DNA from: an uncultured virus (IMG/VR IMGVR_UViG_3300031998_000073)
Lineage: Duplodnaviria; Heunggongvirae; Uroviricota; Caudoviricetes
DNA: 20,000 bases
Direction: 5' to 3' (one strand)
IMG/VR virus record: IMGVR_UViG_3300031998_000073
A model generated the notes under the pieces. It did not search any database. It had not been told where the DNA came from and saw only the letters and a program-made list of their open reading frames with translations. The position numbers were made by a program, and so were the translations under genes. Positions 2,549 to 18,118 of the stretch are shown here, in pieces (the stretch's first letter is position 1; every line of letters begins with the position of its first letter).

Positions 2549-3019
2549 TTATGTGGTTGTGATTACTGTCGAAGTGGATGATACGATGTCGTGCGTGCCC
2601 TCCGGCGCCTTCTTCTCATGGATGAGGCGCACGACGGCAGAGAGCTGGCGCTTCATGTCGCCGAAATACTTGTCTGCGATTCGCGGTGACGTGACGGTGA
2701 ACCAGGAATAGAGGGCGTAGGACACGCAGTACTCGTCACACGACTTGCTGATGAAGTTGTTGAGTGCGTCGTTGTGGCTTGTCGGCAGCGTAATCGTGAT
2801 GGTGTCATTTTCCTCTGCGGTGATGAAGGCCTCCATCTCTGCCGCGATGTCGATGACGGCCTGACGGAGGTAGTCCTCGATGATGCCCTTCTCGTTGGTG
2901 CCGAGGGTGATGTCCCCAAAGAGGCGGTTGCCGTTATCGTCGGTACTCCGTTTGCCGATGATGGAGAGTGAGCGGGAAACCTTGCCGTACAGGGCCGTAT
3001 AGTCGAATGTCTTCTGCAT
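2549..3019 (-). CDS. Putative connector / ring protein (paralog 1)
   Basis: 156 aa, directly downstream of the portal; ITLPTSHNDAL...CDEYCVSYALYSWF...KKAP. Confidence 0.6.
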   Translation of the reverse strand: MQKTFDYTALYGKVSRSLSIIGKRSTDDNGNRLFGDITLGTNEKGIIEDYLRQAVIDIAAEMEAFITAEENDTITITLPTSHNDALNNFISKSCDEYCVSYALYSWFTVTSPRIADKYFGDMKRQLSAVVRLIHEKKAPEGTHDIVSSTSTVITTT

Positions 3020-3025
3020 AGGCGG

Positions 3026-5065
3026 TTACTGTTGGAGTGTGAACGGCTGTCCTGCGCCCTGGCGGGTCAGGAGCTGGCCGGGGCCGTTAAGCAACTGTGT
3101 GGCGATCTGTGCCTGCTGCTGGTCTGCACCCGGAACCTGGACGGGAGCGCCCGGCACCTGTCCTGACATGACCTGCTGCTGGTAGTTGTCGATATCCTGG
3201 AGGAGCTTGTCGGTGAACGGGGCGTCGAGGTTCTTCAGGTAGGTACGCACGTCGATGGCCCTGCTCTCCCAGAGCATGTTCAGCACCTCGTTGCCCATCT
3301 GGTAGAAGGCAGCCGAGGCCGCGGAGTTCTTGATGGAGACGTTCGCCTTGACGTTGCGGCAGGCGTTGGCACGGTAGAAGACCTGCCTGTCGGACTTCTT
3401 CGGCGTGATGTCGCGCCCCTCCTCGTAGAACTGCTGGAGAGATACCAGCGTCTTCATGGCTACGCGCTCCTCGAAGCCGTTGAACTTCTTGATCAGCGGG
3501 TAGATGGTCGTGGTGGCGTTCTGTGCCTCCATGGCGTAGCGCGAGGCAGCCGTGCCGCTGGTGGGCGTCTTGCCCTGGAGGGCGCCGGACACGCCAGACA
3601 CCTCATGTATCATGTTGAGCTGCGTCTGCAGCATCTCGTTGGCGCCCGTGTTGAATGCCGAGTGCGTATAGAACTCCGGCTTTGCGCCCGTCTGCCGCTT
3701 CGTGTCATCATAGACGAACACGGCGTCGAAGCGGGACTTCTGGCTGGCATACTCCTCGGTGCTCATTCCCTCCGGCCTCAGCGACAGCGGGAGGAACGTC
3801 ATGCCCTTGGCAGCGGTACGGATGGCGTAGTCGTTGATCATCACCATGCGGTTGATGTACTTCTGCTGGTCGATGAAGCTGCCCATGAAGGAATGTACCT
3901 CGCCGTTGACGAACGGGAATAGCGACATGGTGAAGGGATGGCTCTTGTAGTCGTAGGGCGTCTCACCCTCGCAGAGGATCCGTCCGTCGGGAGCCATGAA
4001 GTAGTACTGCCAGTACTTGTCAACGATCTCACGGGCCGTGATAAGCGCCCACTGATCCCTGGGCACATTCTTCTCCTCATACAGTGCCATGCGCTCACGG
4101 TTGATGTCGATGACATACTTCAGATCCTCCTTCTCGCAGCGGAAATACTTGTCTATCTGATCGGTGGCCAGCGGGTCGAAGCACTGGTAGCGGGGCTTCA
4201 CCTCCTCGCGCCACACCTCGATGACACGGCAGAGGCCGAGGTTGGACGGCTGGTAGAATGACAGGCTTTCGTAGCTGTGCCTGTCGTTGAGCTGCTGAGA
4301 CGTCTGGCGGTTCATGTTGCCCACCTCGCCGATATGGAAGATCTCATCGAGGTCGTCGATGGTCAGCCCGTACTCCGGCTTGGCGAAGTGGTAGTAGATG
4401 TTCTCGGGCGTCATCTCATGCAGGCATCCGATCATGTGGATATCCTGATGGGTAGGATCGCTGCCGCCCTCCCAGAACATGATGTCGGGGTTCATGACGT
4501 CGTTGTACGAGTCGAAGAGTTCCTGGCGCTCCTCGAACGTGTTTCGCATGAAGGCCGCGGATGATATGAGGTATTCGGCGAAGCCTGAGTCGAGCTTCTC
4601 CGACATGTACTGGTTCTGCCAGTTGGTCTGTATGGCTGCGGAGAGGTTGTCGGAGAGTTCCTTGGCCGCCTGGTTGCGCGCGTAGCATACAGGCTCCGTC
4701 TCCTGCTTGGCATGGATGCCGAAGACGCTCATCCACAATGAGATCATGATATTGTTCTTCAGCGGCGTGAGGCCCTGCATCTGGATCCACCTCTCTTCGG
4801 TCATGTCGCCGTGGCCATAGACGTGTATCACCTCGCCCCACTGGTTGCCGAAGAGCATCTTCAGCACGCGGTGCCGCTCCTGCCTGAAATCATCCTTGTT
4901 ATTCCATGAGCGCGCGCACTCGGAAAGCAGCGCCTGGTCGTACTTCTCTTCCTGCAGATTGCGCTCCCGGCGCTCCTTGACGGTGTCCCTCCGGCTGCCC
5001 TTCTGCAGCGGACGGACGTCATCGAGTGTGAGCAGCGGCCTTGTCGGCTTTGTCGGCTTTGTCAT
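3026..5065 (-). CDS. Portal protein (P22/podovirus-like)
   Basis: 679 aa. Has 'FGNQW', 'PLKNN', 'VIEVW', 'GETPY..KSHPF', 'FIDQQKYINR', 'EVSGVSGALQG' and a Q-rich tail, which matches the size and motif order of P22-type portals. Confidence 0.85.
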   Translation of the reverse strand: MTKPTKPTRPLLTLDDVRPLQKGSRRDTVKERRERNLQEEKYDQALLSECARSWNNKDDFRQERHRVLKMLFGNQWGEVIHVYGHGDMTEERWIQMQGLTPLKNNIMISLWMSVFGIHAKQETEPVCYARNQAAKELSDNLSAAIQTNWQNQYMSEKLDSGFAEYLISSAAFMRNTFEERQELFDSYNDVMNPDIMFWEGGSDPTHQDIHMIGCLHEMTPENIYYHFAKPEYGLTIDDLDEIFHIGEVGNMNRQTSQQLNDRHSYESLSFYQPSNLGLCRVIEVWREEVKPRYQCFDPLATDQIDKYFRCEKEDLKYVIDINRERMALYEEKNVPRDQWALITAREIVDKYWQYYFMAPDGRILCEGETPYDYKSHPFTMSLFPFVNGEVHSFMGSFIDQQKYINRMVMINDYAIRTAAKGMTFLPLSLRPEGMSTEEYASQKSRFDAVFVYDDTKRQTGAKPEFYTHSAFNTGANEMLQTQLNMIHEVSGVSGALQGKTPTSGTAASRYAMEAQNATTTIYPLIKKFNGFEERVAMKTLVSLQQFYEEGRDITPKKSDRQVFYRANACRNVKANVSIKNSAASAAFYQMGNEVLNMLWESRAIDVRTYLKNLDAPFTDKLLQDIDNYQQQVMSGQVPGAPVQVPGADQQQAQIATQLLNGPGQLLTRQGAGQPFTLQQ

Positions 5066-5216: not shown

Positions 5217-5648
5217 ATGGCAGAAAAGACCAACAAGATCCCGAAGAAGGCATACGCGGTGATGCAGGATGCGCTGTTTGAAAAGGACGGCACAGGTGCA
5301 TACAAGCCGCGCGAGATGGCCAAGGAGGGCATGACCTCCCTGAAGAAGCATGCCACAAGCCTTGTGGTGGTATGTACCGACAGCAGCGTGGAGGACGTTA
5401 CAAGCCTGCTGACGAAGAACGAGATCCCGCACGACAAGGTGGTCAGGCTGGATGAAAACTTCGACTATATCGTGACCGGCGACGACAACTGCGTCAAGGC
5501 ATGGTCGTGGAAGGGCGCGCTGGAGGATATCGGCTGGAAGCTGAAGCACCAGCCTGAGCCTAAGCAGGACACGCAGAAGCAGGCCGACAACTCGCTGGAA
5601 CACTTCTTCAAGAATGCACAGAAGGACTGCTGTGTATGTGGAGATTAA
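5217..5648 (+). CDS. Hypothetical protein, possibly degenerate HAD-fold
   Basis: 143 aa, first gene of the operon. The pattern resembles small phage HAD proteins but lacks a DxD motif I. Confidence 0.55.
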   Translation: MAEKTNKIPKKAYAVMQDALFEKDGTGAYKPREMAKEGMTSLKKHATSLVVVCTDSSVEDVTSLLTKNEIPHDKVVRLDENFDYIVTGDDNCVKAWSWKGALEDIGWKLKHQPEPKQDTQKQADNSLEHFFKNAQKDCCVCGD

Positions 5649-5673
5649 TCAAAATTTAATAACTGAGATATAT

Positions 5674-6480
5674 ATGGCTACAACAGACACCAACGGAGGG
5701 CAGGAAGCCCAGCAGCAGCCGCAGAGCGCGCGAGACCGCTACCGCAGCCGCTACAGTGCAGCCCACCCAGACCTGAACCTCGACGATGACGAGGCTTTCT
5801 ACGACCAGGCCAACCGGAACCTTGACGAACTCGAGGACTTCCGCAAGACCAACAAGGAGCTTGGCGACGCCTTCGACAAGACCCCGCTTCTGGCCGGCAT
5901 CGTGCTTGCCGCGAGATCCGGCGAGAATCCCTTTACCTATCTTGCGGAGCAGATCGGCCCCGATGCCGACATCCGTGAGCTGGCCAGTAACCCCGAGTTC
6001 AGCAAGGCCATGGGCGACGCCCTGGCAAAGTTCCAGGAGCGTCAGGCCGCAGGCGCCAAGGCAGATAAGGAGGCCGGGGAGAACTTCCAGAAGAGCATGG
6101 ACGCCCTGGCAGAGCTTCAGCAGGAGAGGGGACTGAGTGACGAGGACCGCATCGGACTCATCAAGAAGCTCTTCGGCGTGATCGACCCTGAGACAAAGGA
6201 GGTCATCGAGCCGGGCATCATCGGCAACGCCTCCGTCGGCATCGTGCCCAAGGAGGTGTGGGAGGCCGTGCTGAAGGCACAGAACTACGACAGCGACATC
6301 GCATCGGCCACCGAGAAGGCGCGCGCCACTGCACTCAACGAGAAGATCCAGAACGGCAGGAAGGACTTCAAGGGCGCAGGCGTCCCCAGCCTCGGCAGCG
6401 GCAGCGCAGGCGCACGTACCGCTCCGAAGAAGAAGAACGACGGCAGTCTGAAGGCATTCCAGGAGAGCTTGGGCGTATGA
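5674..6480 (+). CDS. Putative capsid scaffolding protein
   Basis: Acidic, helical/coiled-coil protein with a low-complexity basic C-terminal tail, upstream of the capsid gene. ATG 5674 follows an AT-rich leader and is preferred over 5614, which overlaps the previous gene. Confidence 0.65.
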   Translation: MATTDTNGGQEAQQQPQSARDRYRSRYSAAHPDLNLDDDEAFYDQANRNLDELEDFRKTNKELGDAFDKTPLLAGIVLAARSGENPFTYLAEQIGPDADIRELASNPEFSKAMGDALAKFQERQAAGAKADKEAGENFQKSMDALAELQQERGLSDEDRIGLIKKLFGVIDPETKEVIEPGIIGNASVGIVPKEVWEAVLKAQNYDSDIASATEKARATALNEKIQNGRKDFKGAGVPSLGSGSAGARTAPKKKNDGSLKAFQESLGV

Positions 6481-6656
6481 TGAAGGACTGTCCCGTTATG
6501 GATCCCAGCCCGGGGCATCCAGACCCAGTGGATCCGGCAAAGAGCGACATGCTCCCATTCGGACGCAGAGCAGGACAGAACCTCAGCGGAACGCAGATGA
6601 GCGCAACGCAGCTGAAGCGCGGAGGACTCGTAAGAGCAAGACATATAAAGAAATGA
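6477..6656 (+). CDS. 59-aa mini-protein paralogous to the capsid protein N-arm
   Basis: MMKDCPVMDPSPGHPDPVDP...AGQNLSGTQMSATQLKRGGL...KK*. ATGA overlaps at both ends. 28/46 identities by hand to the MCP region 6803-6940. Confidence 0.75.
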   Translation: MMKDCPVMDPSPGHPDPVDPAKSDMLPFGRRAGQNLSGTQMSATQLKRGGLVRARHIKK

Positions 6657-8497
6657 ATAATAAACAACCCATTAAAACAACAGAGAGAATGAAAAAGATT
6701 CAGAATTTTGTGGAGAGACACGGACTGATCATCAGCCTGCTCTTCGTAGTGATGGCCGTCCTGACGGGCGGCACCGGCATCTGTCTGGCTGAGGGCGCAG
6801 CCGTGGTCGATCCAGACCCCGCCAATCCCGACCCCGTAGATCCGACAGTTAATGACATGGGCGACGCCACCGGTGAGGGCGCAGGACAGAACCTGCCAGG
6901 CACCCAGGGCAGCGCCACGCAGATCCGTCGCGGCGACCTCGACACCGAGGAGTACGACCCCGACATCGTAAAGTACAATGCACCCAAGTTCGTGCTGCTG
7001 AACTTCGCCCGTACCGTGGCCGTGCAGCGCAGCGTGAAGGGCTATGAGATCGACCACTTCCGTATCGGTGAGGCCAGCCTGACGCTCCGCACTACCGCAC
7101 AGATCAACGAGGCCGAGAGCATCAAGCTGAGCGCGTCGAACTGCAGCGGCAACCTGAACGACCTGGGCGTCAGCTCAACCGTCATCGTGAAGGGCGTGAA
7201 GGGCTACCAGAAGGGCAGCACCACCAAGACCAGCGGCGACCTTGTGCTGTATGTCAGCGCAGCCGACGAGGACGAGGTGACGCTCCGTCCGCTGAACGGT
7301 AAGGCCAAGGTGGAGGGAACCATGAGCGACTACATGCGCGACTACCTCGTGCCCGCCATCCCCGCCAACACAGAGCTGTACATCTCCAGCTATGCCGGCT
7401 CCGAGTCGCAGAAGATCGTTTCTCCCGACAACAGCCAGCCCCGTTCGACCCGCGTCTATCTGCAGAAGCGACTCTTTAATATCCTTATCACAGACCATGA
7501 GCGTGAGATCCTGAAGAAGACCCCGTGGGGATTCGACGAGATGCGCGACCAGGCACTGGCCAACTTCTCCAAGAAGTTCGAGCGCGACCTGTGGGACGGC
7601 GTGCAGACCCGCTACCTCATGCGCACGAAGGACGGCAACGAGGAGTATGTATATACCTCCGAGGGTATCCTCCGCCAGCTGACGAACACGCTGGGCATCG
7701 AGGGCAAGTTCAAGTACGCCCACATCACCGCCATCGGCAAGATCATGTTCACCAAGTATGCAGAGACCACCGAGGCATACCTGCTCTGCGGTAAGAACAA
7801 GGTGGCCGAGATCGCCAACATGGAGGAGATCATCAAGCACATGGACGCCAAGTACGACCACAAGAAGACCGACTACGGCATCGTGGTGCGCGACCTCGTT
7901 TCGAACTTCGGCACGCTGCATATCACCTACGCCCCGATGATGGACGAGATCGGCTATGAGGACTTCTGCGTCGCAGTGCCCCTCCAGATCGCCCGCTACT
8001 ACCACAAGGTGAAGAAGGAGTCAAACATCGACCTGAACAAGGCCGGCAACGACGCACGCGAGGCCATGCGCTATACCTATATCGAGATCGGCGCCCTGGC
8101 ACTCCGCGGTCAGAACTCCCTGCTTGTCGGTCCTTCCGACCAGATCATCGACAAGAACATCAGCGACGACACCGAGCCTATCGAGGTGGTGGACGCCATC
8201 CCCAGCAACCCGACGGACGGCATGATCATCTCCTTCGACGGCCTGCTGAGCGAGGACGGCGAGGTGACGAAGGTGAGCGCACTGCCTGCCGATCCCGCAG
8301 AGGGCGACATCATCGCGCCGACACAGGATATCGTCGTAGGTACCGATCCCGACACCGTGACCTACGAGGAAGGCAAGTACTACATCTATGAGAGCAATGC
8401 CTGGACCGAGTACGACGGCGTAGTCCTCGACGGCGACAAGGTATGGCAGTGGGACGAGGATTCCAGCCAGTGGGTGGAGTACACCGGAAACGTCTAA
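6653..8497 (+). CDS. Major capsid protein (probable HK97 fold) with hydrophobic N-terminal leader and C-terminal decoration-like domain
   Basis: 614 aa, after the scaffold, strongly C/G-ending codons. Motifs 'YLQKRLF', 'KKFERDLWDG', 'TSEGI', 'SNFGTLHI' fit E-loop/P-domain patterns. Alternative start at 6689. Confidence 0.75.
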   Translation: MNNKQPIKTTERMKKIQNFVERHGLIISLLFVVMAVLTGGTGICLAEGAAVVDPDPANPDPVDPTVNDMGDATGEGAGQNLPGTQGSATQIRRGDLDTEEYDPDIVKYNAPKFVLLNFARTVAVQRSVKGYEIDHFRIGEASLTLRTTAQINEAESIKLSASNCSGNLNDLGVSSTVIVKGVKGYQKGSTTKTSGDLVLYVSAADEDEVTLRPLNGKAKVEGTMSDYMRDYLVPAIPANTELYISSYAGSESQKIVSPDNSQPRSTRVYLQKRLFNILITDHEREILKKTPWGFDEMRDQALANFSKKFERDLWDGVQTRYLMRTKDGNEEYVYTSEGILRQLTNTLGIEGKFKYAHITAIGKIMFTKYAETTEAYLLCGKNKVAEIANMEEIIKHMDAKYDHKKTDYGIVVRDLVSNFGTLHITYAPMMDEIGYEDFCVAVPLQIARYYHKVKKESNIDLNKAGNDAREAMRYTYIEIGALALRGQNSLLVGPSDQIIDKNISDDTEPIEVVDAIPSNPTDGMIISFDGLLSEDGEVTKVSALPADPAEGDIIAPTQDIVVGTDPDTVTYEEGKYYIYESNAWTEYDGVVLDGDKVWQWDEDSSQWVEYTGNV

Positions 8498-10112: not shown

Positions 10113-11114
10113 ATGAAAATATTCGAATACGACGTACATATCGGCCAGCACCGCGTCCTGACAAATACGCATGACATCGCCGACAAGGCCGTCACCGGCA
10201 GGAAGCTGGCAGACCGTATCATCGACTGGTACCACATCATCAAGAAGGCCATCCGCAACGAGCATATCGCAGACAAAGCGATTAATACCAGAACCATAGA
10301 CGACAAGGCCGTCACGCCCAAGAAACTGTCTGACGATGTTGTTCCCGATGTGATCCAGCCGCTTTTGGACGAACTTGACGAGAGACACAAGACCATAACC
10401 GACGATCTGCAACATCAGATTACATCAATGGTTGCAGGCTCAAGTGTACCCATCAGCAATCAGTTTGGTGACAATACGCTTGTATGTGTTTCGCAGAAAG
10501 CCCTCACTGAGGCATTCAACAAGGTCTGGGGCAAACTGGAGGAGATTACTGGTGAGAGCCTGAAGGGATTCAACCTCATTGTCACTCCTGAGTATTACAT
10601 CGGAGAGGACGGCTGCACTGTTCATGTCTCTGCATCAAGTGCTGAGACGGCAGGAAGGTTTGAGTATATCCGCTTCCACATCAATAATATCCTCGTCACT
10701 GAGGCTGAGGACGTGGAAAGCTTGGAATATACCACTACGGTCAATGAGACCTCGGAAATCAAGTGTGTGGCAAAGATTCTCGGCATCGAATACACTGAGA
10801 CAAAGATGCTCACACACTACAGCTCATTCTTCCTCGGTGCTGCAACAAGCTACACCAACATCATGAATGTCAACCATATCATCTCCATCAATGATCACAT
10901 GAGGGGCAGCTACAATGTGCCGTGCAATGACGGAGACAGAATCTTCGTGGTTGTGGGCAAGAGTCTGAGGGAGGGCTTTGCGCGTGCTGACATGAACGGT
11001 GTTGAAATCCCGTTCACTGAGAGTGAGGTGACTGTTGACGGTAAGCAGTATGTGGTATTCACGTCACAAAACACCTACCAGAGAGGAACCTACAATATTG
11101 ACATTAACAGCTAA
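10113..11114 (+). CDS. Tail fibre-related protein
   Basis: 333 aa. IxDKAVT..K-type repeats (x3), coiled coil, 'FGDNTLVCVSQKALT' linker typical of fibre shafts, and a beta-rich C-terminus. Confidence 0.6.
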   Translation: MKIFEYDVHIGQHRVLTNTHDIADKAVTGRKLADRIIDWYHIIKKAIRNEHIADKAINTRTIDDKAVTPKKLSDDVVPDVIQPLLDELDERHKTITDDLQHQITSMVAGSSVPISNQFGDNTLVCVSQKALTEAFNKVWGKLEEITGESLKGFNLIVTPEYYIGEDGCTVHVSASSAETAGRFEYIRFHINNILVTEAEDVESLEYTTTVNETSEIKCVAKILGIEYTETKMLTHYSSFFLGAATSYTNIMNVNHIISINDHMRGSYNVPCNDGDRIFVVVGKSLREGFARADMNGVEIPFTESEVTVDGKQYVVFTSQNTYQRGTYNIDINS

Positions 11115-11119
11115 GAGAT

Positions 11120-11530
11120 ATGGAAAGTGTAAACGTATATGCAAGGGGCAGGCAGAAGCCTGTGGCCACCTACAACAATATCCTCCTTCCCCAGAACACA
11201 GTAGGGAAGAGGAACATCCTTGTGCAGGACATGATGACCACTGAGAATGCAAGGTACATCATCAAGTGGGACTTTGACCTTGACGGGCAGACAATCACTA
11301 TCCCTGACGGCTGTATGCTGTCTTTTGAAGGAGGCAGTTTCTTTAATGGTACTGTGAATGTCAACGGTGCTGACATCTTCCCCAACTACGACGCCCTTGC
11401 AGGGACTCAGAACATGACTGTTGAGGGCTATCCCAAGGCTGGTGTCGTGAGGTGGGACTATGAGAATCAGAAACCTGTCTGGAGTACAGGAGAGAAGTGG
11501 GTGAATGCCCTTGGTGGTGATAACGTATAA
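11120..11530 (+). CDS. Short tailspike-like protein (beta-helix N-cap plus C-terminal cap)
   Basis: 136 aa. 'YIIKWDFDLDGQTITIPDGCMLSFEGGSF' resembles the start of beta-helical spikes and 'KPVWSTGEKWVNALG' resembles spike C-termini. Confidence 0.5.
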   Translation: MESVNVYARGRQKPVATYNNILLPQNTVGKRNILVQDMMTTENARYIIKWDFDLDGQTITIPDGCMLSFEGGSFFNGTVNVNGADIFPNYDALAGTQNMTVEGYPKAGVVRWDYENQKPVWSTGEKWVNALGGDNV

Positions 11531-11542
11531 AGACTTGCAGAT

Positions 11543-14500
11543 ATGAACAACGAAGTAACTTACATTCCAAATAGAATTAAGAGCGCATCAAAGAATGACC
11601 CATTTGTAGCAGGTGCCGAGGATATAGATGCAGGGGGTAAGAGTCAGCAGGCTATCAATCAGGAGATGGTATCAGATGTAGAAACTCTTGACGGCAAAAT
11701 TACAGCAGAGAGACAACGGGCAGAAGGAGTGGAACTGAATCTTACAAGGGATATTTCAGACAGATACACTAAGGATCAGGTTTACAACAAAAGCGAGACT
11801 TACAGTCAGGAAGAGGTCAACAATATTGTATCAAGGACTCCCGAGACTGATGTGATTGTCATTGACATACCTGCTGCCTCGCAGAGTGACATTGCAGGCT
11901 GGCTTGATGCCAACACTCCAAGTGGCATTGACCCTGAGACGGGGAAAAGCGTAAGAGCCAACAAACTTTACCGTGTCCCTGGCCCAACAAATACTACATT
12001 CAGTGAGTGGGCCTGGAATGGTACTGCATATATCCCGCTTGCAAACAAGGATTATGGCATTGATGACGAGCCAACTCCTGATTGTGATAATATGTCTAAG
12101 AGTGGAGGTACATTTAAGTTTGTGAGCCGTCAGACATATAATTCGGAAGATGTAGGGAAGGCCATTGAGAGTATTAATAATGTACCGACTATTTATGACA
12201 AGGAAAATTGTCTTGTTACGCCTTTTATTGACGTGAGGGATACAAACGGTGTATTCTACTTCGGTGGAGCTTCTGGAAGTGATTTCGTACATTGCCATAT
12301 CTGCTGCTATAATCTTGCCAAGGAGTTTATTACCGATTATTGGTGGACAATGAGCCTTGGATATTACGTGAACTTTGAAAGAAACACGGAAGCTGGTGCA
12401 AGTGTAAGATATATCAGGGCAACCATGTATGTACCCAACATTCAGAACTGTAGCATAAGGGATGATGACGGTAAGGTCTTGTGGCAGGGTGATATCCATA
12501 AAGATGGAGTCACGTTAGATTATCTGTATGGAAATACGATAAGAGAGTTCAAATGTAACCCTGCCAATGGCAGATTATTGAGAGACGAAGATTGTTGCTG
12601 TACGCCATTCGTTAGTGTTGATGGTCTAAGTGGAATATGGTGGAACTCGAACTGTCATGAGTCAGAGGTTTCCCTTTGCTGTTATGATGCAAACAAGAGA
12701 TTTATTGCCGCCTCAAACTGGTCGTCAAATTATTTGCGCTGGATTGATTTTGGTGGTAGTGACGTCAGATACATTATTGCGTCCATGAAGAAAGACAAAA
12801 TTCAGGACTGCTTTATTAAAGATGCAAATGGAAACGTTCTTTGGTCTGTTGACGCAGGTGATGTTGGAAAAAAGAATTTCAAGGCATACTCTGTTATTCT
12901 TCAGTTTGGTTATGACTACTGGCTGAATGATGATACTTCGTTCACTGTCAGCATAAACCATGCCAATGCCAACAACTCCGTAGGATATGCTAACTGCGAG
13001 AAGGAAGTCGGAGAGGTATATCTTTATGGTGCTGATAGTGCATTGAAAGGCGATATGTATGAATATGTAATACCTAATTTCCACTTCCTTGTAGCAAGAC
13101 AGAAAGAAGGGCTGGACTATTTTGAGCTTACTGTTACCGACTACAACCATTTACAGAAGAATGACATATTACTTTGCTATGCTGCATATTCAAATTTGTA
13201 TGGAGTATTGGCTGAAACAAAAAGTAGAGTATCTTCCAGCTTATTGAATGTTATATATAATTCTGATAATATAAATTATTGTATTGAGGCAGCTGATTAT
13301 CCTGCTCGTATAAAAGAGAAAAAGGATTATCTTGTAACTCCGTTTATTGATGTAAGTGAACTAAGTGGCATTTGGTATGCTGCGGGAATACGATACATCT
13401 ATGCTCACCTCTGCTGCTATGACGCAGATAAAAACTGTATAGAGGACTACTGGTGGACAATGAATACCGGCTACTACATTAACTTCCAAAGGGAAACTGA
13501 AAAGGGTGCACGTGTGAAATATGTTAGAGCCACAATGTATATCCCGAACATAAGGGAATGCTGCCTGAAGACAAGTGAAAACGGAGAAGTCCTTTGGCAA
13601 AGCAATGTTGACAGCTATTTTGGAAGTACTTCACAGGCAGAAGACCTTCCTGTTTACTACAATGACTACCTTAAGGGTATCAGGGAGAAAGTCGAAGACA
13701 GGATCATCTCACTTGGGCATCGCAATGATTCCTTCTTCTTCTTTACCGATGTTCATACCATATTGGATGGCAGAAATAACAACTCTTTCAATTCCGGAAA
13801 GATCATCGGTAATCTGATGAAGACTACAAATATAAACAAGGCTGTGTTTGGAGGTGACATTGCTCCCGCTTTAGGCAGCAGGCAGAATATGATTGACACC
13901 ATGTCTGACTTCGCTGAACAATGGTACAGACATATAGCACCATACGGAAAACTCTACAGCGTAAAGGGTAACCATGACTTCCATATCACGGACAATGGTA
14001 CAAGAATCACCCTTCCGCAGGGCAGTGTAAGGAACTACTTCATGAACAGACAGAACATGGAGGCAGGATTACACTACGATGACAACAATCAGGAGTCCGT
14101 ATACTTCTACACCGACAATCGGGGTCAGAAGATAAGATACATCTTCGTTGACACGATGGATACCGTTGATTGGACTTTCAGCAAGCCCCAAAGCGATTTC
14201 TGCTACAATGCCATCGCTAATGCTCCATCTGGATATGGAATCGTTGTAATAGGCCATATTCCAGCCTGTGAGACAAATGCCCCAACTATCCAGACACTTG
14301 CCGATTTCCTTGGAGGATTCAGGAACAAGCAGAGTGTTACAATCAACGGTACTGTCTATGACTTTACCAGTGTGGAATCTGACCTGTTGTTCATGCTTGC
14401 AGGCCACGAGCATCGTGATGACTTTGTTGCCTATAAGAATGTGCCTTACTTCATTGTCGCGTGCGACACTCTTGTCAATGACTACAAAGTAGGTCAGTTT

Positions 14501-14899
14501 GGAGAGACTGATGACTTTCCCAATAAAGTAAGGGGCACAATATATGAAGTTACATTTGATGCGGTGTTTGTAGACATTCAGAATGAGACTGTTCAGTTTG
14601 TAAGAATTGGAGGAGGCTATGACAGGATATGCCACTTCAATACCAACAGGGTTAATGCGGGCAGTACAATCCAACTGCAAACGACAGTAGAAGACCCCGA
14701 ATGGCTTGATTGTGATGGCACTGGCAACTATTATGGTGGGTGGGATCCGAATACTGGCATGTATATCTATGAGAACAGCCATACAAAAGTGTCTGTCAAC
14801 AATGGTACGGTGACTGGTCTGGCTACTGGCAACGCCCTTGTGTGTGCAAGAAATCGCATTACTAAAGTAATGGAAATATTCGTAATTGAAGTTGTATAA
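11543..14899 (+). CDS. Large fibre/spike protein with three internal repeats, a calcineurin-like metallophosphoesterase domain and a C-terminal Ig-like domain
   Basis: 1118 aa. All five metallophosphoesterase motifs in order: TDVH, GGD, GNHD, GH, GHEH. Repeats 'TPF(I/V)xV...CCY...VRYI/VKYV...VLW'. C-terminus 'VSVNNGTVTGLATGNALV' is Big_2-like. Confidence 0.8.
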   Translation: MNNEVTYIPNRIKSASKNDPFVAGAEDIDAGGKSQQAINQEMVSDVETLDGKITAERQRAEGVELNLTRDISDRYTKDQVYNKSETYSQEEVNNIVSRTPETDVIVIDIPAASQSDIAGWLDANTPSGIDPETGKSVRANKLYRVPGPTNTTFSEWAWNGTAYIPLANKDYGIDDEPTPDCDNMSKSGGTFKFVSRQTYNSEDVGKAIESINNVPTIYDKENCLVTPFIDVRDTNGVFYFGGASGSDFVHCHICCYNLAKEFITDYWWTMSLGYYVNFERNTEAGASVRYIRATMYVPNIQNCSIRDDDGKVLWQGDIHKDGVTLDYLYGNTIREFKCNPANGRLLRDEDCCCTPFVSVDGLSGIWWNSNCHESEVSLCCYDANKRFIAASNWSSNYLRWIDFGGSDVRYIIASMKKDKIQDCFIKDANGNVLWSVDAGDVGKKNFKAYSVILQFGYDYWLNDDTSFTVSINHANANNSVGYANCEKEVGEVYLYGADSALKGDMYEYVIPNFHFLVARQKEGLDYFELTVTDYNHLQKNDILLCYAAYSNLYGVLAETKSRVSSSLLNVIYNSDNINYCIEAADYPARIKEKKDYLVTPFIDVSELSGIWYAAGIRYIYAHLCCYDADKNCIEDYWWTMNTGYYINFQRETEKGARVKYVRATMYIPNIRECCLKTSENGEVLWQSNVDSYFGSTSQAEDLPVYYNDYLKGIREKVEDRIISLGHRNDSFFFFTDVHTILDGRNNNSFNSGKIIGNLMKTTNINKAVFGGDIAPALGSRQNMIDTMSDFAEQWYRHIAPYGKLYSVKGNHDFHITDNGTRITLPQGSVRNYFMNRQNMEAGLHYDDNNQESVYFYTDNRGQKIRYIFVDTMDTVDWTFSKPQSDFCYNAIANAPSGYGIVVIGHIPACETNAPTIQTLADFLGGFRNKQSVTINGTVYDFTSVESDLLFMLAGHEHRDDFVAYKNVPYFIVACDTLVNDYKVGQFGETDDFPNKVRGTIYEVTFDAVFVDIQNETVQFVRIGGGYDRICHFNTNRVNAGSTIQLQTTVEDPEWLDCDGTGNYYGGWDPNTGMYIYENSHTKVSVNNGTVTGLATGNALVCARNRITKVMEIFVIEVV

Positions 14900-14904
14900 A
14901 ATAT

Positions 14905-16287
14905 ATGGCTACAAAGAGAATAGCGTGGACTACGGGAAGCGGTAACATTACCTTGACTTATACTGGCCAAGGTAATGGAACCATTACTGTGGAGTCTGAT
15001 GAAAATAATCTTGGAGCTGCCAGAAGTCAGATTGTGTCTATTCATACAACCGATAATGTTAAAACAAAAAACCTTACAGTTAACCAAGCTGCTTGTCCTT
15101 TTCCTGTAGGTGACACAAAAAATTATTCTTACACAGGTTCTTATCAAGAAGTAGAATTGCCAGCAGGTCAGTATAAGTTACAATGTTGGGGTGCTCAAGG
15201 TGGTAGTAATGGAGCTAATTCAACTTATGGAATTACTGCTCAAGCTGGCGGTAAAGGTGGTTATTCTGAGGGTATTATAACGCTTTCTCAAAAAACAACT
15301 GTAAGAGTCTACGTAGGAGGTCAGGGTTCATCATCCGCTGGTGGTTTCAATGGCGGTGGAAGCACAACAGGAACTTCCCAATATAATGCAAGCAATGATT
15401 TAGGCTATTCAAAGATGGGTGGCGGTGGTGGTGCCACTGATATAAGACTTAGTGATGGAGCATTGCTTTCACGCATGATTGTAGCTGGCGGTGGTGCTGG
15501 TGGTGCTATGGCTTACAGAAGTAATACTACAACTACCACTACAAGCGTGAGTTTTGCAAGTTCTAATCTCAAGTATGATGGTTATTATTTGGAAACAAAC
15601 GGAACGCCAACTGCGGCTAATAATTGGTGTATAACTAAACCTATATATTTAAAAGCAGGAGATACTATATCTGGAACAGCAAAAGGATATGGGCCTGTTA
15701 TATACTTAGCAAAAACAAATTCTTCTGGAAGTTCTTATACAGCAATATTAACTTCAAATTCAAGTAGTTCAACATGGCCGTTCACATATACTGCAACAAG
15801 TAATATGTACGTTGCTATTTCAACTGCTAAGTCAGGTTCTTCAGCAAGTGTCACAAGCACAACAACAACAACGTCAACAAACGCAGAAGTAGGTGGTGTT
15901 GGTGGTGGTTTAATGGGTGGCGGCTATTCTTTAACCTATGTTGGATATGTGAATGAAGCTGGTACAGGAGGTTCTTTTGGAATAGGTGCTAATCAGACTA
16001 CTACAAATTATCGCTTTGCTTCTGCTGGCGGTGGTGGTGGCTGGTATGGCGGAGGAGGAGGACAGAAGTCTAATGCTACTATTATTTATGTAAAATATAG
16101 TGGTGGTGGTTCTGGGTTTGTTAACATTGCTGCTAATGCACAATACAGACCTACTGGATATACAGGATTGCAGCTTGATAGCGGTGAGACAAAGGATGGT
16201 GCTACATCATTTCCAAATACTGCTGGTACAGGCAATGAAACAGGGCACTCTGGTAATGGATATGCAAGAATAACGAGGCTGGCATGA
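14905..16287 (+). CDS. Glycine-rich domain protein with N-terminal half-BACON domain (putative receptor-binding tip)
   Basis: 460 aa. 'LPAGQYKLQCWGAQGG', 'GGGGGATDIR', 'RMIVAGGGAGG', 'GGGGGWYGGGGG' and 'GNGYARIT' are hallmarks of the ALK/LTK-like Gly-rich domain. N-terminus GxGN...N...R...VNQ is BACON-like. Confidence 0.8.
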   Translation: MATKRIAWTTGSGNITLTYTGQGNGTITVESDENNLGAARSQIVSIHTTDNVKTKNLTVNQAACPFPVGDTKNYSYTGSYQEVELPAGQYKLQCWGAQGGSNGANSTYGITAQAGGKGGYSEGIITLSQKTTVRVYVGGQGSSSAGGFNGGGSTTGTSQYNASNDLGYSKMGGGGGATDIRLSDGALLSRMIVAGGGAGGAMAYRSNTTTTTTSVSFASSNLKYDGYYLETNGTPTAANNWCITKPIYLKAGDTISGTAKGYGPVIYLAKTNSSGSSYTAILTSNSSSSTWPFTYTATSNMYVAISTAKSGSSASVTSTTTTTSTNAEVGGVGGGLMGGGYSLTYVGYVNEAGTGGSFGIGANQTTTNYRFASAGGGGGWYGGGGGQKSNATIIYVKYSGGGSGFVNIAANAQYRPTGYTGLQLDSGETKDGATSFPNTAGTGNETGHSGNGYARITRLA

Positions 16288-16355
16288 GCAGGTTTCAGGC
16301 CTGCAAACCCAGACTTTCAAGGCACAATAATATTAACAAAAAAAATATATAGATT

Positions 16356-16964
16356 ATGGCATACGCAAGTTGGTTAACCCCGTCAAAGCAGTCAGGAAGC
16401 GGCAATGATACCGTGAACTTCTCTGCTGGTTCAAACAATACGGGAAGAAATTCAAGAAGCACCAATGTTACCTTCAAGGCCGTTGGTTGCAGTGATGTGG
16501 TGGTGGCTGCTACACAGGCTGGCAAGCCAGAGTTCGGGTCTTTCAACAGCTCTACGGCTGCTGCTGACAAACTTGGACAGACTCTTACGCTGAGTGGAAC
16601 AAGTAACTCCTCAGCACTTACTTTCTCGAAGGGTACGGACAATATTGGCCTGACACTTCCTGCAACTTATACTGCTGGAGGTATGACTATCAACAATGGT
16701 GCAGCCATCACTGGAGACCCCGGTGCCACACAGGAATATGCATGGAGTATTCAGCTCACCGTTCCTGCAAACACGGGAGTCAGTGCGCTTACCTGTCAGA
16801 TTGTAGTCACTGATGATGCAGGACACACGAACACTTGTACTATTACCTTGGCTGCTGGTGATGCAACTCTGAGTGTATCACCTCTCAGCGTTGACCTGCC
16901 TTGGGATGGTTCTACAAGTGCAAGCGTGACTGTCACGTCTAACACCAACTGGACTGTTGAGTAA
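16356..16964 (+). CDS. BACON/Ig-like fibre protein with circularly permuted (split) BACON
   Basis: 202 aa. Starts SWLTPSKQSGSGNDTV...NTGRNSR...TQAG and ends LSVSPLSVDL...VTVTSNTNWTVE*. Confidence 0.75.
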   Translation: MAYASWLTPSKQSGSGNDTVNFSAGSNNTGRNSRSTNVTFKAVGCSDVVVAATQAGKPEFGSFNSSTAAADKLGQTLTLSGTSNSSALTFSKGTDNIGLTLPATYTAGGMTINNGAAITGDPGATQEYAWSIQLTVPANTGVSALTCQIVVTDDAGHTNTCTITLAAGDATLSVSPLSVDLPWDGSTSASVTVTSNTNWTVE

Positions 16965-16966
16965 TT

Positions 16967-17338
16967 ATGAGTGAGGTAATCAACGTACCTAAGATGCTGG
17001 AGCCTACTGCCAGTGACGGAAAACTGGCAAAGGCTTCGTCCATCTTTGACCAAGATGAGGGGAAGTTCCAGAGTCAACTGAATGCCCTTATCATCAAGGG
17101 TGTCACCAAGCTTGTGCAGCTTACTGGCAATATCCTTGCAGATGAGGAGCCTGACGTGAACACCCAGACTGATGTCATCTACGTCAATGATGATGCGGAG
17201 CAGCACACCGTAGGAGTGAACAATGAAGTCTATAGGACTCCAGACGGGGAACTGATGGTCATCGTGGTTCCTTCTCATGGCTACGCTGAGATCAACTTCT
17301 TAAATATTGGAGGCACTATATTTGTCAGGGGACTATGA
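16967..17338 (+). CDS. Small fibre-associated protein
   Basis: 123 aa. N-terminus resembles that of 11543-14899; beta-rich C-terminus. Confidence 0.65.
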   Translation: MSEVINVPKMLEPTASDGKLAKASSIFDQDEGKFQSQLNALIIKGVTKLVQLTGNILADEEPDVNTQTDVIYVNDDAEQHTVGVNNEVYRTPDGELMVIVVPSHGYAEINFLNIGGTIFVRGL

Positions 17339-17481
17339 GAAGAAGGGTCATTGCAACAGGTGGTGAGACACCAGTACCGGCGGAGCCATATCTTGATGTG
17401 GTTCCCAAGATGCTCTGGATAACTGACACGGTTGGCAATGATGCCTTAGTGTTGAGCAATGTAGGTTGGATAGTGCAATAG
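17335..17481 (+). CDS. 48-aa protein: basic N-terminus plus N-terminal half-BACON (not in the ORF track)
   Basis: ATGA overlap with the previous stop. MRRRVIATGGETPVPAEPYLDVVPKMLWITDTVGNDALVLSNVGWIVQ* ends just before the terminator. Confidence 0.7.
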   Translation: MRRRVIATGGETPVPAEPYLDVVPKMLWITDTVGNDALVLSNVGWIVQ

Positions 17482-17523
17482 ACTGGCTATAATTCTTTTA
17501 AATTAATAATGTGAACTGAAATC

Positions 17524-17559
17524 AAGTCAGGCTGTCTGGGAAGATGGCCTGACTTTTTT
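17524..17559 (+). terminator. Rho-independent terminator closing the structural operon
   Basis: AAGTCAGGCTGTCT-GGGA-AGATGGCCTGACTT stem followed by a T tract. Confidence 0.9.
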
Positions 17560-17595
17560 GTCTATTCACGCGAACATTATTTATATACGCACGGG

Positions 17596-17635
17596 AATTA
17601 TATGAAACATTGTCAGGGTAAACGTCGTACCTTTG
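17596..17635 (+). promoter_or_regulatory. Third copy of AATTATATGAAA-N20-TACCTTTG promoter
   Basis: 12-mer at 17596-17607 and -7 element at 17628-17635; spacing identical to the two promoters at 5.1 kb. Confidence 0.75.
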
Positions 17636-17642
17636 CAGCGGA

Positions 17643-17792
17643 GTCGGGGAGATGAGGCTTCAGGAAAAGAAAAATCCCCGACCCAAAATAAGAAGCACCA
17701 CCAACTTATTTCATGCATGCCTCACAGACAGCAGGGCCGGGGACCGTTACCCGTTCGCTATCTGTGAGGCTATGGCTGATATATGGTGGTGC
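17643..17792 (-). ncRNA. Putative structured non-coding RNA (unassigned)
   Basis: Nested stems 17695-17703/17784-17792 and 17719-17732/17757-17770 (G-U pair on the minus strand, C-A mismatch on plus), plus 17643-17650/17675-17682. Begins just downstream of a minus-strand TAACTTTG. Confidence 0.5.
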
Positions 17793-17797
17793 GGGTG

Positions 17798-17805
17798 CAA
17801 AGTTA
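17798..17805 (-). promoter_or_regulatory. Bacteroidetes -7 element TAACTTTG (leftward)
   Basis: Exact TAnnTTTG followed by CA, immediately upstream of the structured region. Confidence 0.6.
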
Positions 17806-17839
17806 AGAAAAAGTTATTAATCAACCAAAATTTGCACCG

Positions 17840-18118
17840 ATGAAAGTGGTAGAATTGTTGAAAATTAGCAGTCCGACGTTAAAAATGCTCTCAGAAAATG
17901 AGGTATCACGGCATGACTGGCGCTATGTGCAGCTGTATGAGGAGTTTCTGCGTATGCGCAGCCTGGGGGTGAAGTATGCCGAAGCCGTAAGGATGCTTGC
18001 CAAGGAGTACGGGATCAGCCGTGCCACCGTGGAAAGGATCGTCTCACGGCTTGGAAGAGAACTGTCGGAAGATGTTAAAAGACCTCACAAGGAGAGGGAA
18101 GAAAGCGGCAACACCTGA
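17840..18118 (+). CDS. Small helix-turn-helix DNA-binding protein
   Basis: 92 aa; 'AVRMLAKEYGISRATVERIVSRL' is a classic HTH. Confidence 0.75.
   Translation: MKVVELLKISSPTLKMLSENEVSRHDWRYVQLYEEFLRMRSLGVKYAEAVRMLAKEYGISRATVERIVSRLGRELSEDVKRPHKEREESGNT

Follow-up and report, generated by a model that had tools for sequence, protein, structure and literature searches.

A short paralogue of the capsid protein N-terminal extension encoded in the head operon of rumen Prevotella-type phages

Most of the known small proteins that direct capsid assembly come from satellites that hijack phages, and phage T4 encodes gp24, a vertex paralogue of its major capsid protein gp23. In phage P22, the basic C-terminal tail of the scaffolding protein, a helix-turn-helix, is described as docking on the N-terminal arm of the coat protein, with Arg293 and Lys296 interacting with Asp14, Glu15 and Glu18 (PMC9965877). 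The scaffold tail of phage 80alpha is reported to form a helix-and-hook on the coat N-arm, and the CpmB protein of the satellite SaPI1 to compete with this scaffold at the contact between scaffold C-terminus and capsid N-arm (PMC5644958). Here, we describe a locus at which a phage itself encodes a short copy of the capsid side. It lies in a 20,000-nucleotide stretch of DNA of an uncultured virus (IMG/VR IMGVR_UViG_3300031998_000073), a rumen Prevotella-type phage; the whole stretch is called the window and is numbered along its + strand. Between a scaffold-like gene and the gene for the major capsid protein (MCP), the window holds a gene of 59 codons, termed the mini-arm gene, whose product is a leaderless, basic, disordered paralogue of the N-terminal extension of the MCP. 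Its parts, and the evidence by which they were assigned, are:

6477..6656, + strand: mini-arm gene, 59 amino acids (MMKDCPVMDP...RHIKK); open reading frame (ORF) list, paralogy to the MCP, conservation in relatives
6477..6480, + strand: ATGA stop/start overlap from the scaffold-like gene to the mini-arm gene; ORF coordinates
6495..6629, + strand: part aligning with the MCP, mini-arm residues 7-51; BLASTP, alignment, structure model
6630..6653, + strand: basic mini-arm tail VRARHIKK, net charge +4; alignment, charge count

The capsid protein features with which it is compared are:

6653..8497, + strand: MCP, 614 amino acids, HK97 fold, SU10_MCP; Pfam PF17236, structure model, Foldseek
6689..6790, + strand: MCP leader, residues 13-46, with an MKK n-region, a hydrophobic core, TGGTG and CLA; sequence, helix 10-38 of the model
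6803..6940, + strand: MCP residues 51-96, the segment copied in the mini-arm, acidic and predicted to be flexible; BLASTP, charge, model

An earlier note, made from the sequence alone, had placed a 59-residue ORF between the scaffold-like gene and the MCP gene, and such an ORF is indeed present at 6477..6656 (+). BLASTP aligns mini-arm residues 7-51 with MCP residues 51-96 at 28/46 identities with one gap (E 4e-16), the same score that the note had reached by hand. The two DNA copies (6570-6630 and 6881-6941) share 70% identity, and both open with GCAGGACAGAACCT, the common sequence pointed out in that note. The copied part starts directly after the hydrophobic leader of the MCP, which is absent from the mini-arm, and takes in two later elements of the MCP N-terminus, an acidic proline-rich stretch and a G/Q motif. 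Fourteen positions are conserved in both paralogues (G..AGQ.L.GTQ.S.TQ..RG.L), a pattern that contains one short helix. Among all window proteins, only the MCP matches the mini-arm at E<1, the best BLASTP match to the scaffold-like protein having an E of 29.

The note had further described the copy as more basic than its source, which is borne out: the mini-arm has a net charge of +5 and an isoelectric point (pI) of 10.2, compared with −7 and 4.1 for MCP residues 47-96. Over the family, the median charge is +4 for the mini-arm (n=22, with a range reaching down to −3) and −4 for the MCP arm (n=117); the MCP body carries −28 and the last 30 residues of the scaffold-like protein +3. The model of the mini-arm protein is disordered (mean predicted local distance difference test score, pLDDT, 59.6), and its sole secondary structure is a short helix at residues 43-48, corresponding to helix 89-93 in the MCP model. 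There, pLDDT is below 50 at residues 39-56, 58-60 and 82-93, and about 60 at 61-80. Since both copies are predicted to be disordered around one common short helix, they look like flexible linear motifs that would become ordered only on a partner. The words "scaffold" and "mature N-arm" of the earlier note are labels rather than findings: the only family match of the upstream protein is PHROG 22323, and the copied segment is described here as an N-terminal extension.

Relatives of the MCP were drawn from viral, metagenome and genome collections and gave 22 distinct loci that show the junction from scaffold-like gene to MCP gene. A homologous mini-arm ORF of 52-68 codons is intact in 17 of them, at MCP identities from 99% down to 43%, and in all 17 it occupies the same slot between the two genes. 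It is missing from the other five (L006 and L015, which belong to one clade, L040, L033 and L038). Of the six frames, the mini-arm frame alone is open in 10/10 loci checked; the antisense ORFs 6285..6644 and 6368..7057 were rejected as coding candidates, antisense frames being open in only two to seven of the ten. Ratios of non-synonymous to synonymous substitution (dN/dS, Nei-Gojobori) among ten mini-arm genes range from 0.05 to 0.60 over 41 computable pairs, with four further pairs saturated, and the median of 0.19 falls inside the range of 0.02-0.29 found for the MCP body. Summed over five independent mini-arm pairs, the proportion of synonymous differences (pS) is 0.48 and that of non-synonymous differences (pN) 0.125. 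As far as comparison of sequences can tell, the mini-arm gene is a conserved protein-coding gene under purifying selection, with a dN/dS similar to that of the capsid body. Its intactness in 17/22 loci and its constrained evolution contradict the decaying duplication that the earlier note had considered should the gene prove absent or disrupted in related phages; the paralogy to the MCP N-terminal segment is upheld as well, while the five loci without the gene, and at least two independent losses, mean that the gene is not universal.

Mini-arm proteins form a family (clusters P0001-P0018 and P0144-P0147) of 50-70 residues, leaderless and carrying both parts of the motif DPxPxxxDPVDP ... G..AGQxLxGTQxSxTQxxRGxL, all of which the window protein shows; the motif lies in its residues 7-51 and is co-conserved with the MCP. 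Identity between the window protein and the 21 other aligned members is 54-92%, and 16 columns are invariant among the 22. Some traits are found only in the mini-arms: basic residues within the proline stretch (DPxP[RK][HRK]xDPVDP), the sequence RRGG[LM] and a basic tail, the length of which varies across relatives. A profile built from six mini-arms retrieved 18 protein clusters of 53-69 residues from public data; matches to the mini-arm profile have E-values from 1.7e-36 to 1.3e-11. An exhaustive profile search of 1.84 billion representatives returned 15 proteins. Four are mini-arm-sized clusters and four MCPs; a further five are short fragments from MCP N-termini, and the last two, of which one was inspected, are repeat proteins. 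No fusion of the motif to another domain came up. No family match to the mini-arm was found in Pfam, PHROGs or NCBIfam, nor a usable match in the ESM Atlas.

The upstream neighbour of the mini-arm gene is:

5674..6480, + strand: scaffold-like protein, 268 amino acids from the conserved start, with the frame open from ATG 5614; position, PHROG 22323, alignment

The mini-arm ATG (6477-6479) overlaps the TGA (6478-6480) of this ORF (5614..6480, +), and the mini-arm TGA (6654-6656) overlaps the ATG at 6653, the opening codon of the MCP frame in the window. The ATGA overlaps that the earlier note had seen at both ends are thus real in the window, and only the first has counterparts in relatives generally. 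The scaffold stop is readable in 17 sequences (the window and 16 loci): it forms an ATGA overlap with the mini-arm start in 11 of these, the window included, and a TAATG in one, and is separated from it by 12-60 nucleotides in five. Judged by these junctions, translation of the mini-arm gene is usually coupled to that of the scaffold-like gene. At the other end, the MCP of relatives begins with MKK, equivalent to ATG 6689 of the window, which is probably the conserved start. Among the loci checked, only L002, L004 and L008 share with the window the 12-codon extension from 6653; the mini-arm stop overlaps the MKK start in L007 and L014, and elsewhere the gap is 18-77 nucleotides. Because the extension is confined to the closest relatives of the window, the overlap at 6653 is not conserved and, on this comparison, is incidental.

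The mini-arm frame is also open upstream of 6477 in the window, with a GTG at 6258, as the earlier note had said. The frameshifted fusion of scaffold and arm that it derived from this is rejected, because relatives carry in-frame stops one to four codons before the mini-arm ATG (7 of the 18 mini-arm-bearing sequences, i.e., the window and 17 loci). In the most distant mini-arm-bearing relatives (clade C), the gene starts 22-60 nucleotides downstream of the scaffold stop, there is no conserved open overlap frame, and fused forms are not among the proteins found.

Assignment of the MCP is based on PF17236 (35.4 bits against a cut-off of 24.1) and on a model of mean pLDDT 77, in which the HK97 body is folded with confidence from about residue 103 onwards. 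Foldseek matches of this model include VP1 (9in6_M, E 4e-17), crAss001, SU10 (1e-6) and HK97 (1.5e-6), while a search of PDB sequences with an MCP profile gave no match at E up to 1. The 120 listed MCP relatives have a common N-terminal plan: a basic start, a hydrophobic core, TGGxG, a small-x-Ala sequence, an acidic proline-rich stretch (DPDPxNPDPVxP) and, directly before the HK97 body, the motif GxGAGQxLxGTQxSATQxxRGxL. In 55 MCPs, Gly74, Gly78, Gln79, Leu81, Gln85, Ser87 and Thr89 are invariant. Using our own script, a core with a best 13-residue hydropathy above 2.0 was found in 119/120 MCPs, down to 43% identity, with a median of three Lys or Arg residues before it and about seven acidic residues after it; Cys, Ser or Ala at −3 together with Ala at −1 occurs in 106/120. 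Scored with our own script, the leader shows the n-, h- and c-regions of a Sec-type signal peptide and looks like one, which would be odd for a shell assembled in the cytoplasm. In several relatives, whose MCPs have 545-554 amino acids (e.g., L005 and L029), the beta-rich C-terminal extension that follows the HK97 body (residues ~500-614, 8150-8497) is reduced by about 50-60 residues; therefore, it is probably a variable surface domain. The scaffold-like protein is acidic with a basic C-terminal tail (...APKKKNDGSLKAFQESLGV). PHROG 22323 is of unknown function, and a scaffold role is inferred from the place of the gene between portal and MCP.

Clade C has MCPs 43-46% identical to that of the window, and its mini-arm genes are:

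L036 2289-2450, L037 2269-2427, L041 2262-2423 and L042 2289-2450: clade C mini-arms, arm motif plus copy of the scaffold tail

In their products (MTGPDGQEAGVSLTG...KKKKKRKSFFDDWEND), residues 2-31 align with residues 53-82 of the MCP of their own clade (60% identity, E 2e-9), and residues 35-54 with the C-terminus of their own scaffold-like protein (55%, E 1e-4; 17/18 nucleotides), the copied tail comprising a Lys run and SFFDDWE. The gene is preceded by an A/T-rich region of its own rather than by a stop/start overlap. These alignments show, at the level of sequence, that the mini-arm gene arose by duplication of head-operon DNA. The chimera of arm and scaffold tail suggests that DNA was duplicated in tandem across the scaffold/MCP junction and that the copy then lost the leader, giving the clade C form.

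On an MCP tree of 21 rows, midpoint-rooted with Bacteroides phages on one side, presence of the mini-arm gene requires at least four changes, three of them forced by well-supported branches. L040, which lacks the gene, is sister to the mini-arm-bearing L010 (support 99/98) and L006 is nested among mini-arm-bearing loci, so that a minimum of two losses took place; given these losses, the mini-arm is probably an accessory rather than a core part. Aligned with the window, L006 has a clean gap of about 165 nucleotides that removes just the mini-arm ORF, and relatives without the gene retain the same A-rich region before the MCP. In L040, a prophage in a Prevotella metagenome-assembled genome, two units of about 30 nucleotides with the palindrome CGCCTG.CAGGCG stand in place of the gene (2371-2491), and the MCP arm is mini-arm-like (KSDLAPEGRDAGQ).

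Within single genomes, pS between mini-arm and arm is 0.42-0.91, and between genomes its medians are 0.58-0.64, with each pair contributing 15-19 synonymous sites. Because synonymous divergence is equal within and between genomes, albeit over few sites, recent gene conversion was rejected as an explanation for the likeness; the match between the two also indicates that the likeness was kept by selection or by old exchange. Older exchange is seen in the mini-arm-like MCP arms of L040, P0023 and P0024, and in MCP-like mini-arms (P0017 against P0040, and P0147). Strict co-variation of the mini-arm with its own arm was likewise discarded: the mini-arm is 0.63 identical to its own arm against 0.57 to the arms of other clades, and clade A has no preference.

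The leader has a possible counterpart in the genomes of relatives. A rhomboid (PF01694, above cut-off) is encoded in 14 of 15 related viral records, i.e., in all 14 longer than 20 kb, the exception being a 10-kb fragment; of the 14 rhomboid ORFs extracted, 13 retain the HxxxN, GxSG and His motifs. Three isolated Bacteroides phages also have a rhomboid, located between capsid module and terminase, together with a leader-bearing MCP (checked in BF1-TP2 and BS-TP4), and no mini-arm. No rhomboid was found in the 20-kb window by tblastn. The window is collinear with contig G002, but its junction at 17559/17569 skips 3.9 kb of that contig, with genes for an 894-residue protein, a 153-residue protein and the rhomboid. 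Window positions 17339-17840 are mostly non-coding; coordinates of the skipped and rhomboid regions are L022 4909-8773 and L018 1228-1905. A literature search found no paper about rhomboids of phages in connection with capsids, about BF1-TP2 or about a pairing of leader and rhomboid.

Because the MCP body and arm are acidic, the scaffold-like tail and the mini-arm basic, the clade C protein a chimera, and scaffold tails dock on N-arms in P22 and 80alpha, we tentatively favour the possibility that the mini-arm protein is an arm mimic, competing for or occupying the docking site of the MCP N-terminal extension during procapsid assembly. It would occupy the site that normally receives the MCP's own extension, for which a neighbouring capsid subunit or the scaffold is a candidate. 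Its basic tail may be attracted, much like a scaffold tail, by the acidic interior surface of the shell, and the protein could modulate nucleation or the binding or release of the scaffold, or occupy sites that have no arm. Several points speak against such a role. In the monomer model, MCP residues 51-96 are undocked on the body, and no docking site was identified there. Several acidic arm positions are basic in the mini-arm, so it may not bind the partner of the acidic arm. As the window mini-arm has no likeness to a scaffold tail, the argument from scaffold tails rests on clade C. The tracking of cognate arms is weak, and five of the 22 relatives live without the gene.

The membrane offers a different, rather unlikely, setting, in which the leader directs the capsid precursor to the membrane or anchors it there, the phage rhomboid or a host signal peptidase releases it, and the mini-arm modulates this leader-processing step or marks its completion. 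The mini-arm starts exactly where the leader ends; a leader is present in 119/120 family MCPs, with small residues at −3/−1 in 106/120, and rhomboids with catalytic motifs intact in 13/14 occur in 14/15 related records and, paired with a leader, in the three isolated Bacteroides phages. However, a leaderless mini-arm would stay in the cytoplasm, and the active sites of rhomboids and signal peptidases face the far side of the membrane. The Bacteroides phages, and also G009, G012 and G014, have the rhomboid without the mini-arm, so that rhomboid and mini-arm are uncoupled; no rhomboid is encoded in the window, and cleavage of the leader is only predicted. A bolder combination, which we consider similarly doubtful, is an undescribed, membrane-coupled mode of head building in tailed phages, with a membrane-targeted MCP precursor freed by an intramembrane (rhomboid) or signal protease, the leaderless, basic mini-arm, a copy of the newly exposed N-terminus, as a soluble switch that primes or gates nucleation, and arm copies as a general, unrecognised class of regulators. 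The mini-arm could also be an internal head protein, brought into the procapsid by its arm-like or scaffold-like parts, and its basic tail would contact DNA or neutralise the acidic inner shell. The N-terminus of the HK97 capsid protein faces the interior. A net charge of +5 with a basic tail would suit such an internal protein, as would the scaffold C-terminal tail carried by the clade C mini-arm, since scaffold tails are described as targeting proteins to the shell interior in other phages (PMC5644958, PMC9965877). It becomes unlikely when the family is considered: the tail is nearly absent in P0006, P0012, L013 and L029 (...GGLIKP) and in P0013 and P0016 (...GGLAR), and charges are as low as −3.

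Bacterial sensors of capsid proteins exist, and the mini-arm, a free copy of a conserved capsid epitope that is lost sporadically, as accessory counter-defence genes are, could act as a decoy for a host defence system that recognises the N-terminal segment of the MCP. This is improbable, as location in the head operon and coupling to the scaffold-like gene would make it late and in step with the capsid, while a decoy is expected early, and strong purifying selection at the MCP-matching positions fits a structural contact better. Even less probable is a translated spacer, acting in cis to hand ribosomes from the scaffold-like to the capsid gene, with an irrelevant peptide. To our knowledge, Bacteroidota generally do without Shine-Dalgarno-led initiation, and both the ATGA overlap with the scaffold-like stop in 11/17 and a mini-arm stop that overlaps or adjoins the MCP start would accord with such a spacer. 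Yet the peptide is conserved (dN/dS 0.19, 16 invariant columns in 22 sequences), the clade C ORF lies 22-77 nucleotides from both neighbours, and relatives without the gene keep the A-rich region leading into the MCP. Finally, the open frame upstream from 6258 in the window and the lack of the gene in 5/22 relatives might point to a decaying or neutral remnant of duplication, or to a sequence translated only when a frameshift extends the scaffold. We give this almost no credence: the ORF is intact in 17/22 loci despite saturated synonymous change, stops interrupt the upstream frame in 7/18 sequences, the scaffold frame closes with two consecutive TGA codons, and the exhaustive profile search held no fused forms.

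The rightward head operon has the order 143-residue ORF, scaffold-like gene, mini-arm gene and MCP gene, and diverges from the portal gene:

3026..5065, − strand: portal, P22-like; PF16510 (E 3.8e-22), phrog_156, divergent from the head operon
5217..5648, + strand: 143-residue ORF, first gene of the head operon; ORF with a C-terminal Cys cluster

The 143-residue ORF sits in a slot often taken by a prohead protease. A Cys cluster is conserved at its C-terminus, reading ...CCVCGD in the window and CVCCGD or CPCCG in relatives. The protein matches no known family, and the ESM Atlas returned only unnamed viral clusters. The C-terminal tail of the portal ("ATQL...GAGQ") was considered as a third copy of the motif and rejected (BLASTP E 30). 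Downstream of the portal, the ORFs 542-1099, 2007-2537 and 2549-3019 (all − strand) all match phrog_19255, of unknown function, and therefore look like tandem paralogues; a 285-residue ORF lies between phrog_19255 ORFs. Over the tail genes (window 11000-18000), the guanine-cytosine content drops from about 0.58 to 0.40-0.47. This region encodes an 1118-residue protein with a metallophosphatase domain and a 460-residue protein with an ALK/LTK glycine-rich domain, and window positions 11523-14906 have no nucleotide match in the otherwise collinear G002, the mark of a mosaic replacement.

The mini-arm is a phage's own short mimic of a capsid N-terminus, conserved across a group of rumen Prevotellaceae phages; our literature search found no paper describing the mini-arm gene family or arm mimics. 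If it binds at the arm site, it would be a natural and genetically simple handle on the control of nucleation by arm and scaffold tail, and a starting point for peptides that inhibit or tune HK97-type assemblies. It may also help to open the unexplained system of leader and rhomboid to experiment.

Known systems resemble parts of this arrangement. As with the rhomboids AarA, whose substrate is TatA, and GlpG, intact rhomboids are encoded by the relatives and the leader has small, helix-breaking residues, TGGxG, near the end of its core; the leader topology is of the signal-peptide type, basic on its N-side and acidic on its C-side, cleavage is a prediction, and the window is without a rhomboid. 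The HK97 delta domain and other N-terminal propeptides are likewise segments before the HK97 fold that act in assembly, but the window phage has a separate scaffold-like gene, the N-terminus of its MCP resembles a secretion signal and recurs in part as the product of a separate gene. Like T4 gp24, the mini-arm is a capsid paralogue encoded beside the capsid gene and would serve the same shell; whereas gp24 is a full-length HK97-fold protein, the mini-arm holds about 45 residues of a flexible N-terminal extension, without a fold of its own. With P22, the window phage has in common a P22-like portal, a separate scaffold-like gene and an acidic capsid N-terminus opposite a basic scaffold tail, as described for P22 in PMC9965877; P22 has no free arm copy, its coat protein has no leader, and the scaffold-arm contact in the window phage is a predicted one. 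Closest is SaPI1 CpmB acting on 80alpha, described as a small protein that presents a short motif at the contact of scaffold C-terminus and capsid N-arm (PMC5644958), and the clade C mini-arm similarly bears a copy of the C-terminal tail of its own scaffold. That feature is found only in clade C (E 1e-4), the window mini-arm being without a scaffold-like C-terminal motif (E 29), and no role in size redirection is indicated for the mini-arm. According to the same account, CpmB comes from a satellite gene and mimics the tail of the scaffold, whereas the mini-arm is encoded by the phage. By analogy, the competing-scaffold principle would be the nearest functional parallel, yet it is the capsid side of the contact that the mini-arm copies.

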